In this document: positions 738-63,079 of the stretch, one piece after another
Position numbering within the stretch: position 1 is the first letter of the stretch
Layout: the number at the start of each line of letters is the position of its first letter
DNA from: an uncultured Opitutales bacterium
GTDB lineage: Bacteria; Verrucomicrobiota; Verrucomicrobiia; Opitutales; CAYWEO01
Length of the DNA stretch: 64,000 nt
Assembly (NCBI GenBank): GCA_964457855.1
Contig: CAYWEO010000002.1
Span: 9,015 to 73,014, forward strand
Direction: 5' to 3'
The notes under the pieces: generated by a model
What the model was told of the DNA's origin: nothing
Seen by the model: only the letters and a program-made list of their open reading frames with translations
Database searches by the model: none
Position numbers and translations under genes: made by a program

Positions 738-1030
738 CGGAGGGGGTATTTTTTGCAAAAACAACCCACTCTTGAACCCTCTCCTAAAAAACTCTCAGGA
801 CCGCATCAAAAGCTTAAGATGCAAGGTAGGCGCGCAAGGTCGAAGCTGCGGAGCTTACTAAAGGTAAGTAAGTAAGCAAGCCAAGATCCGATGCGCAACC
901 CCCCCTGGCATCTTAAGCTTTTGATGCGGTCCAGCTCGCGCGCCGATCGTTCCATCTCAAAATCAAGGCCGTCCCTTTTACCCAGTATGGGAAAAAATAC
1001 CGTTTTTCTTTGAAAGGTTCGGAAGGCGTT
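738..1030. repeat. repeat locus R1: degenerate H3 half (738-770), FB-alpha variant foldback (798-932), FB and linker fragments to about 1030
   Basis: Perfect 25-bp outer stem GGACCGCATCAAAAGCTTAAGATGC (798-822) / GCATCTTAAGCTTTTGATGCGGTCC (908-932). The core shares AGGCGCGC...GATCCGATGCGCAAC with other FB-alpha copies. The apex is altered (see findings). Confidence 0.85.
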
Positions 1031-3952: not shown

Positions 3953-4202
3953 CGCTTTTGAGCGGCGGGTTCTTTGCGCTCGGCATCAATGCCATCACGT
4001 ACGTTAGTACGCTCAGGCATCTTGTCCTCGCGCGCTCGTCATCTTAAGCTAGATAGTTTCTAACGTTTTATAGAACTTTTCATGGAAAGTCGCATCGGGA
4101 GGCATTTTTTGGCACGTAGTGCCAAAAAATGCCTCCCGAATAAAAATTTTTAGGGGGAAGGGTTCGGGAACCCCCCTTTTTTACAAAAAAGGGGGGTTCC
4201 CG
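3953..4202. repeat. repeat locus R2: FB-alpha in reverse orientation (3953-4050), degenerate H1, H2 (4095-4139), H3 variant (4165-4202)
   Basis: CATCACGTACGTTAGTACGCTCAG apex. H2 has a 21-bp stem TCGGGAGGCATTTTTTGGCAC/GTGCCAAAAAATGCCTCCCGA. H3 is CGGGAACCCCCCTTTTTT/AAAAAAGGGGGGTTCCCG. Confidence 0.9.
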
Positions 4203-12774: not shown

Positions 12775-13084
12775 TTCCGGAGGGGGGCTTTTTAGGTTAA
12801 TTCCGGAGAACCAATTTTTTGCAAAAAAATGGTTCTCCGGGCCTCTCCAAAAAAAACTCTTAATTCGGAAGGCATTTTTTGGCACATAGTGCCAAAAAAT
12901 GCCTTCCGATACCGCTTTTCTTGTGAAAATTAGGAAAACGTCGGAACCTCTGGCGTGGCTTCTATTTCGAGATGACGGGCAGGCGCGCGCGGACGAAATC
13001 CCTGAGCGTACTAACACGTGATGGGATTGAGATCCGATGCGTAACGAACCCGCCGCTCGAAATAGAGGCTACGCCAGAGGTTCC
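12775..13084 (-). repeat. repeat locus R5: reverse-order array with H3 half plus H3 (12803-12840), H2 (12865-12909), degenerate H1, then FB-alpha (12943-13084) overlapping the xseB 3' end
   Basis: FB arms GGAACCTCTGGCGTGGCTTCTATTTCGAG (12943-12971) / CTCGAAATAGAGGCTACGCCAGAGGTTCC (13056-13084). The right arm contains the xseB stop (13069-13071) and its last 4 codons. Confidence 0.9.
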
Positions 13085-17520: not shown

Positions 17521-17689
17521 TCAGGGAAACTTTCTTTTCGGAGAAAAGAAAGTTTCCCTGACCCTTCAAAGAAAAGCATATCGAAGCGCATTTTTGTGGC
17601 ACTACGTGCCTAAAAAATGCGCTTCGAATGAAGAGTTTTTTTGGAAAGGGCCCGGGAAAACCAATTTTTGCAAAAAATGGTTTTCCCGG
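17521..17689 (+). repeat. repeat locus R7: complete H1 (17521-17561), H2 (17581-17627), H3 (17652-17689) array
   Basis: All three palindromes lie between the DUF502 start and the tRNA-Arg(CCG) 3' end. The stems carry compensated variants (TCAGGGAAAC.../...GTTTCCCTGA). Confidence 0.95.
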
Positions 17690-21349: not shown

Positions 21350-23548
21350 ATGATCAATGAGGATGTCAAACAGTTAGAAGGAACGGTCGAAAGAATTGTC
21401 TTTTTCAACGAGGAAAATGGCTATTTCGTCGGGGAATTCAGGGTTAACGAAGGGAAGATAATCACCATCGTTGGCATTTTGCCTGCCGTGCACTGCGGAG
21501 AAACGTTAAGGATTAAGGGGAAATGGACCCGACATCCCGAGTACGGAGATCAATTTAAGGTTGAGGGAGTCGAATCTCAATTGCCCGCAACGGTTTATGG
21601 AATTAAAAAATACCTATCCAGTGGCCTGATTGATGGGGTAGGGAAGGGTTACGCCGACCGCATCGTGGATCATTTCGGCGAGGACACCTTTCGCGTTATC
21701 AGTGAGCAATCCGCCCGTTTGAAAGAAGTCCCTGGGATCGGAAAACAGAGGGCGCAAGCGATTAAAAAGTCGTGGGATCAGCAGAGAGTTGTGCGCGACA
21801 TCATGATTTTTTTCCAAACCTACGGGATTACGATTGGGCAGTGTTTACGTTTGCACAAAACCTACGGGGATCGTGCTTGCGAAGTGGTTAAGGCGAATCC
21901 CTACCGCATGGCTCGCGAAATCGACGGCATTGGTTTCAAAACGGCGGACAAAATCGCTTTAAACTTGGGATTTGCGAGCGATAGTCCCTTCCGCATTGAA
22001 GGCGGAATTTTGTTCGGAATGAGCGAGTTAGAGACGAATGGCCACACGTGTCTTGAATTGCAGGTTTTTATCGACTACGTTCTGGGTATTTTGGGTGTCG
22101 AGGAGGAAAAAATCAAGGAACGTCTGAAAGTTCTCATTGATGAGCGGCGTATTATCGATTTGGGGGATGGCAGGGTGCAAAGCGTGAATGCGTACTTGGC
22201 GGAGAGCCGGATCGGCGAGGACGTTTGCAGAATCTTGAAAGCGAAGTCACTTTTGCCACAATTTGACGTAGAATTGGCGCTGCAATGGGTGGAAAAGCGT
22301 CTCGGATTTGATTTGGCGATCGAACAGCGGGATTGGGTCCTCAAAGCCTTGCATTCCAAAATATCGATTCTAACGGGCGGTCCTGGTACGGGTAAAACCA
22401 CCGTTTTAAGGGTTCTGGCGTCGATTTTGCGAGCGAAGAAGGTCAACGTCGTTCTAACGGCTCCAACGGGTCGTGCGGCTCAACGAATGAAGGAGGCTAT
22501 TGGGTTTGAAGCGCGAACGGTTCACCGCTTGTTGAAACTGGAACCTGGTACGAGGCGTTTTTTCCACAACGAAGAGCGTCCGTTAACGGGTGACTTTTTC
22601 ATCGTCGATGAAGCGAGTATGTTGGACATTTATCTCATGAGTGCGTTGATAAAGGCAATCCCAAGCGAGGCCCATGTACTGTTCGTTGGAGACGTTTTCC
22701 AATTGCCGTCCGTGGGTCCTGGAAACGTTTTGAAGGATCTTATTGATTCGAAGTTGATGAACGTCAAATACTTAAAGCGCATTTACCGTCAAAGCGAGCG
22801 GAGTGGTATCATCGAAGTCGCCCACGGAATTCTGGAAGGGGCTCATCTCGTTCCCAACATGAGAGAGCGTATTGAGGATATCGATCCAGCAGGCGACGTG
22901 CATTTTATTAAGGAAATCGACCCGGCGAAATGCGTGGAGATTGTGAAGAAATTGTGCAACGATCAACTGACGCGATGGTACCTTTCGGATCCGATGGCGG
23001 ACGTGCAGGTTTTGGTTCCCATGCACAAAGGAACGGCGGGGATTAGTACGTTTAACGTTGAGCTCCAATCGGTTCTGAATAACCTATCGGCTGCTCAGGG
23101 ACCTGTGGACACGTGGCGCCAATTCCGTGTTGGGGACAGGATTTTGCAGCTCAAGAATAACTACGACAAAAACATCTTTAATGGCGATTTGGGGCGTATC
23201 TTATTCATTGACAAAGAAAAATCCCGCATGGTCATGGACTTTAACGGAGAAGAGGTTGCCTTGGAAGGAGTTGAATTGGAAGACGTCGGGCTTGCCTATG
23301 CAATGAGCATCCATAAATCCCAAGGGAGCGAATTCCCCATTGTTATCATTCCTCTGTTGAAGCAGCATTTCTTGTTGCTGCAGAGGAACTTACTCTACAC
23401 TGCCTTGACGCGTGGGCGGCATAAGGTCTTTTTTGTCGGAGATCCAGTTGCCTACCAAATGGCTGTTCGCAATGCGGAAAGTGTCTCTCGCGTAACGGGT
23501 TTGAAGGAACAGCTCCTGAAATTCGCGAAGATGTTTGGCTTAATTTAG
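21350..23548 (+). CDS. recD2: RecD2-like SF1B ATP-dependent DNA helicase
   Basis: 732 aa. Walker A GGPGTGKTT, DEASML, a helix-hairpin-helix-like region, and the C-terminal SIHKSQGSEF...LLYTALTRG. Confidence 0.9.
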   Translation: MINEDVKQLEGTVERIVFFNEENGYFVGEFRVNEGKIITIVGILPAVHCGETLRIKGKWTRHPEYGDQFKVEGVESQLPATVYGIKKYLSSGLIDGVGKGYADRIVDHFGEDTFRVISEQSARLKEVPGIGKQRAQAIKKSWDQQRVVRDIMIFFQTYGITIGQCLRLHKTYGDRACEVVKANPYRMAREIDGIGFKTADKIALNLGFASDSPFRIEGGILFGMSELETNGHTCLELQVFIDYVLGILGVEEEKIKERLKVLIDERRIIDLGDGRVQSVNAYLAESRIGEDVCRILKAKSLLPQFDVELALQWVEKRLGFDLAIEQRDWVLKALHSKISILTGGPGTGKTTVLRVLASILRAKKVNVVLTAPTGRAAQRMKEAIGFEARTVHRLLKLEPGTRRFFHNEERPLTGDFFIVDEASMLDIYLMSALIKAIPSEAHVLFVGDVFQLPSVGPGNVLKDLIDSKLMNVKYLKRIYRQSERSGIIEVAHGILEGAHLVPNMRERIEDIDPAGDVHFIKEIDPAKCVEIVKKLCNDQLTRWYLSDPMADVQVLVPMHKGTAGISTFNVELQSVLNNLSAAQGPVDTWRQFRVGDRILQLKNNYDKNIFNGDLGRILFIDKEKSRMVMDFNGEEVALEGVELEDVGLAYAMSIHKSQGSEFPIVIIPLLKQHFLLLQRNLLYTALTRGRHKVFFVGDPVAYQMAVRNAESVSRVTGLKEQLLKFAKMFGLI

Positions 23549-23914
23549 GCGGCGTAGCGATTTGTAATCGCTAGGGTTCGTTAAGACAGAGCCGATTTTG
23601 AGCGGCGAGTTCGTTGCGCATCGGATCTCGATCTCATCACGTACGTTAGTACGCTCAGAGATCTCGACCTCGTGCGCCTGCTCGTCGTCTCAAAATCGGC
23701 TCTGTCTGAAAAATTCCAACCCCGTCACGTACGTTAGTACGCTCGGGGGTTAAAATTTTTCCGTAGCCGTCCCTATCATCTCGAACTTACTACGCCGCCC
23801 CACCTTAAGCGAAGATAAATTCCCATTTTTTTGCTCAGCATGAGCAAAAAATAACGCTTTTCTTTTGAAGGTTCGGAAACTTCTTCTTTTCTCGGGAAAA
23901 GAAAAGTTTCCGAA
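23548..23914. repeat. repeat locus R8: FB-beta (23548-23799) with a complete FB-alpha nested in one arm (23585-23706), then an H2 variant (about 23824-23852) and H1 (23872-23914)
   Basis: Two apex motifs (CATCACGTACGTTAGTACGCTCAG and GTCACGTACGTTAGTACGCTCG). Inner perfect 18-bp arms GACAGAGCCGATTTTGAG/CTCAAAATCGGCTCTGTC. Outer arms GGCGGCGTAG/CTACGCCGCC. Confidence 0.9.
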
Positions 23915-28911: not shown

Positions 28912-29194
28912 TTCGGAAACTTTTCTTTTCAAGAGAAAAGAAATAGTTTCCGAACCTTCAAAAGAAAAGCTATATCGGAAGGCATTTTAGTTCGGCCTGT
29001 AAGGCCGAACTAAAATGCCTTCCGAATACGAAAAGAAAAGAAGAGCAAAATCGGTTTGGCGCCGTCGATTTCGAGATGATAGGCAGGCGCACGAGATCAA
29101 GATGCCTGAGCGTACTAACACGTACGTGATGGCATTGAGATCGATGTGCAACGAACCTAGCGCTCGAAATCGCTACGGCGCCAAACCGATTTTT
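28912..29194 (+). repeat. repeat locus R10: H1 (28912-28954), H2 apex variant (28975-29025), FB-alpha (29047-29194)
   Basis: FB arms AAAATCGGTTTGGCGCCGTCGATTTCGAG / CTCGAAATCGCTACGGCGCCAAACCGATTTT. The right arm ends inside the hsp20 stop codon (29193-29195). Confidence 0.9.
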
Positions 29195-32388: not shown

Positions 32389-32734
32389 TTTCGGGAACCT
32401 TTCTGTTCACGAGAACAGAAAAGGTTCCCGAACCCTCCAAAGAAAAGCGGTATCGGAAGGCATTTTTATCGCCAAAAACCGCTAAGAAAACATCGATTTT
32501 GAGGGGTCGTTTTGTAAAAAATAACTTTGGCCCACCACTTTGAGGGAGACAGTAGTCAGTTTGCCCAGAAACCGAACAGATTCCTGGCACAAACCGCAAA
32601 GAAGGCACCGATTTTGAGATGATAGAGACGGCTTAGAAAAAATTTTACTCCTGAGCGTACTAACGTACGTGATGGGGTAAAATTTTTTCTAAACGGAACT
32701 CTAGCGCTCAAAAGCGACACCTTCTTTGCGGTTT

Positions 32735-32744
<10 letters not shown>
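32389..32744 (+). repeat. repeat locus R11: H1 variant (32389-32432), half H2, degenerate segment, FB-beta (32583-32744) overlapping the tRNA(CAU) 3' end
   Basis: Outer arms CCTGGCACAAACCGCAAAGAAGG (32583-32605) / CCTTCTTTGCGGTTTTGGTGCCAGG (32720-32744). The right arm includes the tRNA acceptor 3' strand and CCA. Confidence 0.9.
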
Positions 32745-45527: not shown

Positions 45528-45812
45528 TCGGAAAACTTTCTTTTCAGAAGAAAAGAAGAGTTTTCCGAACCTTTCAAAGAAAAGTCATATCGGAAGGCAT
45601 TTTAGTTCGGCCTTACAGGCCAAACTAAAATGCCTTCCGAACTAAGAGTTTGTTTTGGCCAAAATTTTTGCGCCTTATGGACGTAGGGAACCGCACGATT
45701 TTGAGATGACGAGCAGGCGCGCGAGGACGAGATGCCTGAGCGTACTAACGTACGTGATGGCATCGAGATCCGATGCGCAACGAACTCGCCGCTCAAAATC
45801 GTGCGTTCCCTA
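45528..45812 (+). repeat. repeat locus R13: H1 (45528-45569), H2 apex variant (45590-45640), degenerate H3, FB-alpha (45684-45812) overlapping the recombinase 3' end
   Basis: FB arms TAGGGAACCGCACGATTTTGAG (45684-45705) / CTCAAAATCGTGCGTTCCCTA (45792-45812). The right arm contains the stop (45793-45795) and the last 5-6 codons. Confidence 0.9.
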
Positions 45813-46704
45813 GTGGATGGCAATCGCGGTATGCCTGCACGAGGTTTTTCGTGGAGAGGGAGGTATAGATTTGGGTAGTGGCGATGTTGGCATGGCCGAG
45901 CATTTCCTGAATGGCGCGGAGATCGGCTCCGTTGGTGAGGAGGTGGGTGGCGAAGGAATGTCGGAGCATGTGGGGTTTGAGGTTTTTTTGAATGCCGAGT
46001 TGTTGGGCGTAGTGTTTGATGAGGGCCCAAACCGTCTTTCTGGAAATGGCTCTTCCTCGTTGAGTCAGAAAGACTTTCGCATTTGTCCAACGTTTGACAA
46101 ATTGCGGGCGCGCAACGGTTAAGTAGTTTTTAAGTGCCGTGATGGCCTGGGAACCGATGGGAATGATCCGCTCTTTGCTGCCCTTTCCCATGACGAGAAC
46201 GTATTGGGGATCGAAGTGAACGTGCGTGAGGTCGAGTTCGCAGAGTTCCGTTACGCGCAACCCGCTGCTGTACATGAGTTCGAAGATCGCGCGGTCCCGG
46301 ATACCCTCGTTTGAGTGAAGATTCGGGGCGTTTAACAAGCGCGCAATGTCTTCTACGGAAACGACTTCTGGCAAACGGCGTACCGTCTTTGGATTGCGAA
46401 ATTCTGCCAGAAAACTCTTCTCTAAAACGTTCTCTTGGATTAAGTAACGAATGAGGGTCCGTGCGGCGGATAATTTTCTTGAAATCGTTGTGGAGCAGCA
46501 ACTTGCGTCCATCAACTGCGACATCCATAGCGAAATGTCATTCGGTGATACGTCTTCCCAGCGAGACTTTTTTTGCTGCAATAGAAAAGCGACCAACTGC
46601 TCCAAATCCTTGCCGTAGCTTTGAAGTGTGTTCTTGGACAAACCACGCTCAAGGCCGAGAAACGCCAGAAACGCGCCCACAGACTTCTGTAAAATCGATT
46701 GCAT
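45793..46704 (-). CDS. XerC/XerD-family tyrosine recombinase
   Basis: C-terminal catalytic region HMLRHSFATHLLTNGADLRAIQEMLGHANIATTQIYT. Start trimmed to ATG 46704 (MQSILQKSVGAFLAFL) because 46722-46820 is repeat sequence. Confidence 0.9.
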   Translation of the reverse strand: MQSILQKSVGAFLAFLGLERGLSKNTLQSYGKDLEQLVAFLLQQKKSRWEDVSPNDISLWMSQLMDASCCSTTISRKLSAARTLIRYLIQENVLEKSFLAEFRNPKTVRRLPEVVSVEDIARLLNAPNLHSNEGIRDRAIFELMYSSGLRVTELCELDLTHVHFDPQYVLVMGKGSKERIIPIGSQAITALKNYLTVARPQFVKRWTNAKVFLTQRGRAISRKTVWALIKHYAQQLGIQKNLKPHMLRHSFATHLLTNGADLRAIQEMLGHANIATTQIYTSLSTKNLVQAYRDCHPLGNARF

Positions 46705-49506: not shown

Positions 49507-49746
49507 TTTCTGGAACCTTTGTTTTCACGAGAAAACAAAATGTTCATGAACCCTCCAAAGAAAAGCGGTATTTTTACACAAAAGCGCAAAAAAGGGCTCC
49601 AAAAAAACTTATCCAAGAGACACCGTAGTAAGTTCGAGATGATAGGGACGGCTACGGGAAAATTTTAACCCTCGAGAGTACTGTAACGTGACGGGGTTGG
49701 AATTTTCCTGTAACGGCACCCTAGCGCTCGAAATCGCTACGGTGTC
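49507..49746 (+). repeat. repeat locus R16: degenerate H1 (49507-49550), linker, FB-beta (49619-49746) overlapping the glgB stop
   Basis: Arms GACACCGTAG (49619-49628) / CTACGGTGTC (49737-49746). The apex variant is TCGAGAGTACTGTAACGTGACGG. Confidence 0.85.
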
Positions 49747-51695: not shown

Positions 51696-52016
51696 TCGGA
51701 AACTTTTCTGTTCCAGAACAGAAAAAGTTTCCGAACCTTCAAAAGAAAAGCGATATCGGAAGGCATTTTTTGGCACTACGTGCCAAAAAATGCCTTCCGA
51801 ACAAAGATTTTTTTGGAAAGGGTCCAGGGAAACCTATTTTTTGCAAAAAATGGTTTTTTCGGCACAAAACATCTAAAAACAACGAACCAAAGGACGCCGT
51901 AGTAAGTTCGAGATGACGAGCAGGCGCGCGAGGATTTTAACCCCTGAGCGTATTGTAATACGTGATGGGGTTGAAATTTGAGCGCAACGAACTCGCCGCT
52001 CGAAATCGCTACGGCG
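51696..52016 (+). repeat. repeat locus R17: the full four-module array H1 (51696-51735), H2 (51756-51800), H3 (51824-51862), FB alpha/beta chimera (51905-52016)
   Basis: All modules lie in canonical order between the divergent glgB and dnaG starts. The FB ends 8 nt before the dnaG ATG. Confidence 0.95.
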
Positions 52017-56554: not shown

Positions 56555-56842
56555 ACTTCCAGAGTTTCCGACCCTTCCAAAGAAAAGCCCTCCGAATGTT
56601 GCAAATTTGCATCTTAAGCGATGGCCCACTCCCCACAAGGTGGCTTAGCAAGTTTGAGATGATAGAAACGGCTACAAAAAAAATTCAATCCTAAGCCATC
56701 GAACCACACTCGACAGAATACCGCCGATTTTAAGATGACGAGCAGGCGCGCGAGGGGGAAATGCCCGAGCGTACTAACGTACGTGATGGCATCGAGATCC
56801 GATGCGCAACGAACTAGCCGCTTTAAAATCGGCGGTATTCTG
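56555..56842 (+). repeat. repeat locus R19: H1/H2 fragments, half FB-beta, FB-alpha (56714-56842) abutting the tRNA-Val(GAC) 3' end
   Basis: Arms CAGAATACCGCCGATTTTAAG / CTTTAAAATCGGCGGTATTCTG. The right arm overlaps the encoded CCA by 2 nt. Confidence 0.85.
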
Positions 56843-57146: not shown

Positions 57147-57478
57147 CGTGGCCAGGAAGGTGTCAATTTTGAACGCTAGAGTTCCGTTACAAAAAAATTT
57201 CAACCCATCACGTACGTTAAGTACGCTCAGGGATTGAAATTTTTTTGTAGCCGTCTCTATCATCTCGAACTTGCTACGCCACATCGCGAGGAGTGGGATT
57301 TTCTTCAGAGGATTCCAAAAATTGACGCCTTCCTGGCCACGATGGGTCGAAGCAAATTTGTAAAATTCCAAAATTCGAAAGGCATTTTTGGCCTGTAGGG
57401 CCAAAAATGCCTTTCGATACCGCTTTTCTTTTGAAGGTTCGGAAACTTCTTCTGTTCTGGAACAGAAAAGTTTCCGAA
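57147..57478 (-). repeat. repeat locus R20: long hairpin (57147-57341) enclosing FB-beta in reverse orientation, then H2 (57375-57417) and H1 (57438-57478)
   Basis: 24-nt arms CGTGGCCAGGAAGGTGTCAATTTT (57147-57170) / AAAATTGACGCCTTCCTGGCCACG (57318-57341) with one mismatch. The hairpin starts 5 nt after tRNA-Val(CAC). Confidence 0.9.
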
Positions 57479-62911: not shown

Positions 62912-63079
62912 CGGGAAAACCATTTTTTGCAAAAATAGGTTTTCCCGCACCCTTTCCAAAAAAACTCTTCATTCGGAAGGCATTTTTGAGGCACGTAGTG
63001 CCACAAAAATGCCTTCCGATACGCTTTTCTTTGAAGGGTCCGGGAAACTTTCTTTTCTTCGAAAAGAAAGTTTCCCGGA
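62912..63079 (-). repeat. repeat locus R22: complete reverse-order array H3 (62912-62947), H2 (62973-63019), H1 (63039-63079)
   Basis: It fills the convergent groEL/acpS gap almost exactly, from stop 62896 to stop 63081. Confidence 0.95.

Follow-up and report, generated by a model that had tools for sequence, protein, structure and literature searches.

The 64-kb stretch of DNA analysed here (the window), whose XerD and RluD homologues point to an Opitutales-like Verrucomicrobiota as host, carries at least 13 copies, and fragments in addition, of a hairpin-forming repeat that, judged by structure and sequence, groups with ERIC (enterobacterial repetitive intergenic consensus), also named IRU or RU-1. 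Copies differ in presence between this strain and a related one, they face the 3' ends of genes and tRNAs with a strict polarity, an orthologous copy has different arms in two strains, and one of them, at 45684-45812, provides the tail of the neighbouring XerD protein. The repeat is of a known kind, found in a new host phylum and distinguished by unusual outer arms and by its polarity. ERIC-type hairpin repeats have been known from E. coli since 1990, and ERIC/IRU/RU-1 were reportedly described by Sharples and Lloyd in 1990 and by Hulton and colleagues in 1991. We think it fairly probable that an ERIC-type repeat has proliferated in this genome with a fixed polarity, has acquired layered arms and, in the copy at 45684-45812 (the focal copy), has rewritten the end of xerD.

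In the focal copy, the stretches 45684-45705 (TAGGGAACCGCACGATTTTGAG) and 45792-45812 (CTCAAAATCGTGCGTTCCCTA) are inverted copies of each other, one indel apart, and the whole 129 nt form a near-perfect hairpin (-73.2 kcal/mol, z -10 against dinucleotide shuffles). The opposite strand folds almost equally well (z -9), and both strands read 5'-UUUUGAG...CUCAAAA-3'. The core has the ends TTTGAG...CTCAAA, an internal loop CAGGC/AACGAA and the apex CTGAGCGTACTAACGTACGTGATG. An initial annotation of this DNA had placed the two arms, the xerD stop (45793-45795) and the LGNARF end of the protein correctly, as it had the further cases at xseB, tRNA-Met, hsp20 and tRNA-Val(GAC). The parts of the focal locus are:

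45684-45694, forward strand: left outer arm, outside the cross-phylum core (TAGGGAACCGC); pairs with 45802-45812.
45695-45801, forward strand: ERIC-like core of the alpha type; matched by covariance model R1 (see below) at 54.9 bits, E 3.1e-10, model positions 1-108.
45802-45812, forward strand: right outer arm, within the xerD coding sequence.
45793-46704, reverse strand: xerD, 303 aa; the codons NARF and the stop are element sequence, and the HPR motif has become HPL.

Several better-known structures were considered for this hairpin and set aside. An intrinsic terminator (a GC-rich hairpin with a U tract behind it) was ruled out, as no terminator-like site was scored in 45400-45950. A k-turn or box C/D reading of CUGA...GAUG does not fit a loop that is symmetric (U.U, G.A, A.G) and has no bulge, and its sole Rfam match was sR43 (8.9 bits, E 5.9). 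Likeness to the hammerhead or to group II domain V/VI was rejected as the core nucleotides misfit and Rfam gave no match. Across the whole window no Rfam family reached its gathering score on the copies, and none was found at E<=10 over 45640-45860.

The first line of evidence for the family link is the distribution of the apex. In a scan with one genome per species, the central 20-mer was found at 42 loci in Bacillota (Planococcaceae, Bacillaceae and Clostridia), Bacteroidota, Verrucomicrobiota and Pseudomonadota; in every case it formed the tip of a long hairpin, with arms that vary by lineage. A metagenome scan that allowed any tetraloop gave at least 120 matches, several of them clearly ERIC-like, with at least 62 different loops on an otherwise fixed apex; a metagenome scan for a lineage-specific 25-mer gave no match. 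We extracted 169 hairpins, 102 of which are less than 80% identical to one another, and they have in common CAAGGC on the upstream side (24-26 nt from the apex) and AACG on the downstream side (17-21 nt from it). The landmarks of the family are the ends TTYGAG...CTYRAA, a CAAGGC/AACGMA internal loop (5x6) and the apex GAGCKUAC-N4-GUAMGUGA, which is built of tandem G.A pairs, a G.U pair, a CGUAC/GUACG helix and a free tetraloop. Of 5426 E. coli genomes, for comparison, 5424 contain the canonical ERIC core at 100% identity.

A covariance model, R1, was built from 40 aligned hairpins of other phyla, with the window, ERIC-like and known Verrucomicrobial sequences left out. Covariation in its alignment is strong: 86.4% of the cells are paired, as against 62.5% in shuffles and 29-42% with the partners slid, and 252 cells show double changes versus 93 in shuffles (none of 500 shuffles was as high). 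R1 finds 40 matches in the genome loci of other phyla. Its E values are 2.5e-11 to 6e-9 for the alpha copies of the window and, for the beta copies, 1.4e-6 and 7.9e-6; two full E. coli ERIC copies, one in the ybhJ-ybhI interval and the other in the rpsB-tsf interval, are matched at 2.5e-7 and 4.7e-5. The matches to window and ERIC copies run end to end (model positions 1-108). The 127-nt E. coli ERIC consensus given in Delihas 2007 (PMC2759123) is colinear in global alignment with the focal alpha copy (z 5.1) and with the copy at 798-932 (z 4.3); by sequence alone the beta type scores only z 0.5 against it. Within the 44-nt central inverted repeat of ERIC (GTGAATCCCCAGGAGCTTACATAAGTAAGTGACTGGGGTGAGCG), the central 20 nt are shared save for one compensatory pair and the loop, and the 12-nt blocks around them have another sequence here with the pairing kept. 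Because R1 unites the window and ERIC copies and the consensus aligns colinearly, the window element is an ERIC/IRU/RU-1-type hairpin repeat and a member of an ERIC-type superfamily, where the initial annotation had seen no described class. On sequence and covariation evidence, the core of this superfamily is conserved from Pseudomonadota to Bacillota, Bacteroidota, Verrucomicrobiota and many metagenomic lineages. In the open-access papers searched we found no description of such cross-phylum conservation of the ERIC core, and no match to the apex sequence.

Other hairpins related to this family were seen in passing. An un-annotated hairpin of about 150 nt between pyrH and frr of E. coli K-12 (locus L168, 3001-3160) has the apex GAGCGTAC-AAAA-GTACGTGA on other arms; it is a single copy, found at >=95% identity in 3513 of the 5426 E. 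coli genomes, and R1 matches its apex only (E 0.003). Pantoea and many metagenomic contigs have hairpins like it. Some hairpins are arranged in tandem, with four apexes exactly 147 nt apart in locus L101 (3977-4437) and pairs 126-196 nt apart in loci L057, L142, L154 and L157.

The second line of evidence comes from an empty site at xerD. The window xerD-family open reading frame (ORF) ends ...CHPLGNARF, with its stop inside the right arm of the focal copy. XerD P0002 of a related strain (JGI contig), 97% identical, ends ...CHPRA*, and HPR is kept in every XerD homologue inspected, as against HPLGNARF* in the window. The DNA of the related strain at the xerD 3' end is an empty site, CACCCTAGGGCGTAAGGCGC, and its window counterpart reads CATCCACTAGGG, then the element (AACGCACGA-core-TCGTGCGGTT), then CCCTACGTCCATAAGGCGC. 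The empty site contains no hairpin made of arm sequence: AACCGC of the focal outer arm and its partner are missing from it, and TAGGG alone is shared with the window. As this site is empty, no hairpin pre-existed at xerD and the inner arms arrived with the element; and as the homologues keep HPR and the empty site lacks arm sequence, the last codons and the stop belong to the element, so that the xerD tail comes from the element and not the reverse. The initial annotation had derived the focal arm from the 3' end of the gene, and had itself named a comparison of orthologous gene ends as the check; with the related XerD ending differently (HPRA*), the direction it proposed is refuted and reversed. 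The shared TAGGG/CCCTA could be a weak, 5-nt trace of mirrored target, or alternatively TA plus GGG...CCC.

The Arg of the otherwise invariant C-terminal HPR motif of XerD has been lost here through a 2-nt insertion together with the element. Downstream of xerD the related strain (L044, 2040-2100) carries a different hairpin, CCGGAGGGGGT...ACCCCCTCCGG, which is lacking in the window; the intergenic region therefore turns over in both lineages.

Three protein genes of the window, xerD, xseB and a glgB-like gene, end inside copies, and the TAG stops of the latter two both fall in the CGTAG subfamily motif. In the hsp20 and glgB-like products the Pfam domain stops 1-4 residues short of the C-terminus, and in XseB 10 residues short. 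As relatives for a further empty-site test at xseB we found only an identical strain, in three samples with identical DNA.

Copies were found by scanning the 64-kb window for the shared ends and folding each one. They fall into two main core types, alpha and beta, with the same ends and apex; one copy is a hybrid, and one alpha copy is nested in a beta copy. The palindromes span 92-162 nt in total, with cores of about 108 nt, and the apex 24-mer has 7 matches at <=3 mismatches in the window against 0 expected. The apex had been described as constant across copies, and the copies at 12967, 29071, 49634, 51908, 57268 and 808 depart from this by indels or substitutions, one of the changes being compensatory (GCGTAT...ATACGT). 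The initial annotation was right that there is a conserved core, which it drew too short: CGATT/AATCG and CCGTAG-yaagt/tcrCTACGG, left outside by it, belong to the subfamily consensus, each in a subset of copies. It had also missed the copies at 808-921 and 23584-23707. The copies and fragments, besides the focal one, are:

798-932, forward strand: copy whose apex is of the ERIC type (GGAGCTTAC..GTAAGT) and whose 25-nt arms are perfect; R1 match at 808-921, E 5.5e-6.
3956-4047, reverse strand: alpha copy with an outer arm of nearly nil, 11 nt past the stop of a T2SS-F gene.
12943-13084, forward strand: alpha copy whose right arm holds the last four xseB codons, the TAG stop lying in the CGTAG subfamily motif. 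The mirrored stretches are 12943-12955 and 13072-13084, as first annotated.
23548-23799, reverse strand: beta host copy with an interrupted right arm; 1 nt at its right end is shared with the stop of a RecD2-like gene.
23584-23707, reverse strand: alpha copy nested in the preceding one, with arms of its own (AGACAGAGC/GCTCTGTCT) that are not target-derived.
29047-29193, forward strand: alpha-like copy whose right arm finishes inside the hsp20 stop codon.
32518-32561, forward strand: remnant left end with the recurrent arm TTTGAGGGAGACAGTAG.
32583-32744, forward strand: beta copy at tRNA-Met, with arms of 23-25 nt into which 10 nt of the tRNA 3' end fall, the mirror being at 32583-32590.
39053-39197, reverse strand: beta copy 2 nt past tRNA-Leu, with arms identical to the tRNA-Met arms of the related strain.
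39223-39259, reverse strand: truncated alpha left end (GCGTGGCTTCTATT-TCGAGATGACGAGCAGGCGCGCG).
49619-49746, forward strand: degenerate beta copy whose right arm holds the last 3 codons and TAG stop of the glgB-like gene; no R1 match.
51895-52016, forward strand: alpha/beta hybrid with a unique arm of nearly nil, 7 nt upstream of a start codon (the polarity exception).
56654-56700, forward strand: truncated beta left half.
56714-56842, forward strand: alpha copy whose right arm overlaps the CCA of tRNA-Val(GAC) by 2 nt.
57148-57282, reverse strand: beta copy 4 nt past tRNA-Val(CAC).

Further short remnants of element ends lie at 1041-1054 (GCGTAGTTTCTATT), at 17578-17631, where a weak R1 match (E 0.43) adjoins tRNA-Arg(CCG), and at 32440-32470 (CATCGATTTTGAGGGG). 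The window also holds a second, commoner repeat family, with at least 15 copies, made of the hairpin GGAAGGCATTTT...AAAATGCCTTCCGA plus GAAAGGTTCGGAAAAC...CTGTTC..GAACAG (for example at 45575-45640, 12865-12937, 51696-51801, 57374-57478 and 62972-63075). It is often placed between a gene and an ERIC-like copy, and may be the real terminator.

With the copies oriented by the strand that carries the tandem G.A pairs, each palindrome's right end was placed relative to the 3' end of the gene or tRNA that converges on it; the distances are +122, +11, -16, -1, -1, -10, +2, -20, -10, -2 and +4 nt, with one exception. Ten of the 12 loci thus fall within -20 to +11 nt. The window has five tRNA transcription units, and four of them have a copy directly behind them. 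In the other phyla a nearby tRNA lies on the same side of the element in 13 of 13 cases (about 8 of them independent), and in Planococcaceae that right side meets the 5' end of a tRNA, 16S or 23S; by a rough ORF heuristic, right-hand neighbours are convergent in 56 cases versus co-directional in 35. The polarity may reflect targeted insertion, arm growth that halts at functional sequence, or orientation-dependent selection, the last of which reviews report for ERIC in Yersinia (PMC2229807, PMC10969869). As a separate observation, in Planococcaceae the family stands in sense orientation, with G.U-rich stems, upstream of 16S (L003, L004, L025, L028), 23S (L012, L024) and tRNA-Phe (L006, L007, L016, L019, L021, L042) and only a few nt from their mature 5' ends, a placement which suggests a role in the rRNA-operon precursor.

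Of 50 copies folded as RNA, 49 give the better structure on the strand with the tandem G.A pairs. In Bacillota and Bacteroidota this strand is rich in G.U pairs (for example 11 versus 0), which indicates an RNA-level constraint on it in these two phyla. Rfam holds related transcripts: RF02818 (V_AS5, Vibrio RNA AS5) matches, over the full length of the model, the E. coli ERIC loci (L168 1060-1169 and L169 359-482), at 46.4 and 24.6 bits against a gathering score of 96, and is in effect an ERIC model, and RF02798 (CssrA, a Shigella small RNA) overlaps the right half of the rpsB-tsf ERIC. ERIC-type hairpins are therefore recorded as transcripts, and ERIC as such has no Rfam family. One could conclude from these data, from the strong covariation across phyla and from the conserved single-copy relative between pyrH and frr in 3513 E. 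coli genomes, that the hairpins are functional RNA genes or cis-elements rather than mobile DNA, with stems kept by compensatory evolution under RNA selection. For the window we strongly doubt this: here both strands fold about equally, with G.U counts of 46 versus 41, and the copies are near-perfect palindromes that vary between strains, are nested and truncated, and lie in coding sequence. Moreover, the replacement of a 23-nt arm at about 9% nucleotide divergence (see below) is too fast for point-wise compensation. By their folding, the window copies seem to behave as young DNA palindromes.

The third line of evidence concerns the outer arms. In 10 of 12 copies the pairing continues past the cross-phylum core for another 7-28 nt, with scores of 4-14 against a null 99th percentile of 3. 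Its inner part is made up of the subfamily consensus stretches named above. The arm CACTCCTTTGAGGGAGACCGTAG recurs at tRNA-Leu, in the remnant at 32539 and at the tRNA-Met of the related strain, and GCGTRGYTTCTATT occurs three times; nine arm pairs have no third copy in the window. The initial claim that arms are specific to their locus holds, within the window, for these nine pairs, and does not hold for the inner layers and the two recurrent arms.

At tRNA-Met, one orthologous element can be compared between two genomes. The related strain, identified via RluD (about 91% nucleotide identity; JGI 3300077323/4), has an orthologous beta element beside tRNA-Met, whose 23-nt tRNA-to-core spacer and matching far arm differ entirely from those of the window. 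Its arms are those of the window tRNA-Leu copy, with an identical junction GGCAC|TCC. The far arm of the window copy (CCTGGCAC...) mirrors 8-10 nt of the constrained tRNA 3' end. In the related strain the same far-arm sequence is an unpaired flank beside a truncated element (...TGCTTTCTTTGCGGTTTTAGACCAGAATTTG; homologous flank TCTGGTCT, without a partner), and its window version is ...GTGCCAGG, which mirrors the tRNA 3' end CCTGGCAC. By our own calculation the chance of such an in-register match is about 1.5e-5 per locus. In at least one lineage, then, the tRNA-proximal arm was swapped for a mirror of the far arm, length for length; and since the tRNA end is constrained, the 8-10 tRNA-derived nt were copied from the tRNA side. 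The arms of the nested alpha copy are unrelated to its target, and so arms also travel with the element. Judged from these sequences, the arms appear both to travel with the element and to change in place.

Three explanations of the arms have to be weighed against this background. One is that arms are simply part of the transposed unit, so that many source subfamilies, each with its own terminal inverted repeats, are present in other parts of the genome, no copying takes place on site, and the tRNA-like arm stems from an earlier tRNA site or from recombination. Such carriage accounts well for the xerD inner arms that are not in the empty site, for the nested copy with its own arms, for the CACTCCTTTGAGGGAGACCGTAG pair shared with its junction by tRNA-Leu and the related tRNA-Met, and for the threefold GCGTRGYTTCTATT; as the whole story we consider it rather unlikely, given nine arm pairs without a third window copy, a tRNA-Met arm that mirrors its own tRNA 3' end, inverted and in register, and one orthologous element with different arm pairs in two strains. 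The initial annotation offered the other two. Its first model, in which a mobile core enters the loop of old gene-proximal hairpins such as terminators and the arms are the terminator stems, recalls the Bacteroidales relatives whose cores sit inside A-tract/T-tract terminator-like stems beside tRNAs. It is nevertheless very improbable here, because the empty xerD site has no hairpin and the insertion is within coding sequence, the nested insertion sits in the side of the beta arm and not at its apex, a tRNA acceptor 3' strand cannot belong to an ancestral terminator stem, and the focal copy has no terminator-like site scored near it. Its second model, outward growth by template switching, is partly supported, by the arm turnover and tRNA mirror at tRNA-Met; the nested copy brought arms of its own, as the xerD copy did its inner arms. 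Fold-back copying of the target at every insertion is ruled out by the nested copy.

We therefore favour an explanation that combines carriage with local change. An ERIC-type repeat would have proliferated in an Opitutales-like genome, as presence/absence between strains, nesting and fragments indicate, its copies keeping a fixed polarity in which the 3' end of the G.A strand faces a convergent gene or tRNA 3' end. The focal copy entered the last xerD codons with its own inner arms, and now supplies the C-terminal residues and the stop. Arms would consist of three layers: the subfamily consensus, sequence probably carried along from earlier sites, and an outer edge probably made in place, when replication template switching at the strong quasi-palindrome copies one flank onto the other. 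Because this third layer would be made in place, the far arm can mirror a tRNA 3' end. By analogy with ERIC, the transcribed hairpin may then form the 3' structure of the mRNA or tRNA precursor and act as a determinant of stability or processing.

Several points weigh against this explanation. The window segment 32518-32984, which carries tRNA-Arg(CCT), tRNA-Met and elements, is inverted relative to rluD as compared with the related strain (L047, 1429-1907), with many element ends there and its breakpoints in repeat copies; the rearrangement means that the direction and order of events at tRNA-Met cannot be fixed. Gene conversion between copies could also swap arms. Mirroring in place is indicated at two loci, and the 5 nt at xerD are possibly due to chance; the nested copy did not mirror its target. 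Arm recurrence was judged on 64 kb of genome, so source copies with the same "unique" arms may lie elsewhere. TA is present on both sides at the focal copy only (1 of 12), with no direct repeats at the others. No transposase or mobilising gene and no parent insertion sequence was found beside the copies, in window ORFs that were partly screened. We know of no mobilising gene for ERIC.

Two candidate routes of mobilisation were rejected. ORFs between inverted copies in locus L035, considered as an autonomous element, are not transposase-like by eye, and one is ferredoxin-like. Retro-insertion primed by tRNA CCA finds no correlate, as CCA is encoded in 3 of 6 tRNAs whether or not an element is present.

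For decades ERIC has served in the typing of bacteria, non-enteric ones included. The wider range described here, with a fixed apex and variable loops, gives a comparative handle on the part that is recognised, and the G.U-rich copies of other phyla point to RNA-level selection on one strand. The strict polarity and the orthologous arm differences make this a natural system for studying site choice and lengthening by template switching; for annotation, it matters that three protein genes end inside a repeat. A more far-reaching scheme, which we put forward tentatively and regard as doubtful in its entirety, would make ERIC one branch of a pan-bacterial hairpin family, the near-invariant apex and CAAGGC/AACGMA loop being a recognition module for a widely conserved partner; in the window the hairpins would be polar, gene-end-seeking elements, their arms growing by templated mirroring of the flank and so rewriting C-termini and tRNA trailers.

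[quoted passage not shown] Correia/NEMIS of Neisseria and other bacterial MITEs are abundant hairpins of about 100-150 bp at gene borders, co-transcribed and affecting mRNA processing (PMC3184786, PMC10969869). The window element resembles Correia/NEMIS in abundance, hairpin formation and placement, yet has no sequence relation to it: Correia has 26-bp terminal repeats, TA duplication and an IHF site, whereas the window unit is one hairpin throughout with conserved internal loops. Rickettsia palindromic elements enter genes, RNA genes among them, and are retained in the product (PMC2229807), a likeness in the incorporation of a palindromic repeat; they insert in frame inside coding regions, whereas window copies touch extreme 3' ends only. 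Quasi-palindrome template-switch mutagenesis homogenises, perfects and can lengthen inverted-repeat arms (PMC7202029, PMC8794818, PMC8604942, PMC13100816), and fits the like-for-like replacement of 23-nt arms and the tRNA-end mirror; it is a mutational process rather than an element family, unreported on ERIC-type repeats, and its action here is read from a two-strain comparison only.

ERIC remains the closest relative. Both are a single long imperfect-palindrome hairpin (about 110-130 nt; ERIC about 127 bp with one stem-loop, a form the window copies share), both are matched by one independent covariance model, and the landmarks TTCGAG...CTTGAA, AGCAAGGCG and CAACGCAGC of ERIC are colinear with the window. 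The ERIC apex GAGCTTAC-N4-GTAAGTGA and the window apex GAGCGTAC-N4-GTACGTGA show a compensatory G-C to U-A difference. Placement is alike, in intergenic regions and 3' untranslated regions. Both also fuse to gene 3' ends, with the same orientation and with replacement of the stop codon: ERIC is known to remove the stop and to add a tail, the gene reading the same element strand (PMC2759123). The two differ in that the 12-nt blocks beside the ERIC apex (GAATCCCCAG/CTGGGGTGAGCG) are not conserved in the window copies, and in host range, ERIC being described for Enterobacteriaceae and Vibrionaceae only (PMC10969869, PMC2267715) and the present element for Verrucomicrobiota. ERIC has 5'-TA-3' at both termini, or as target duplication (PMC3184786, PMC2229807), and the window copies save the focal one have no such flanks. 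Finally, in contrast to ERIC, the window element has two or three core types with common ends and apex, adds outer arms of 8-25 nt that are mostly confined to a single locus, and is near-absolute in its polarity towards the 3' ends of genes and tRNAs.

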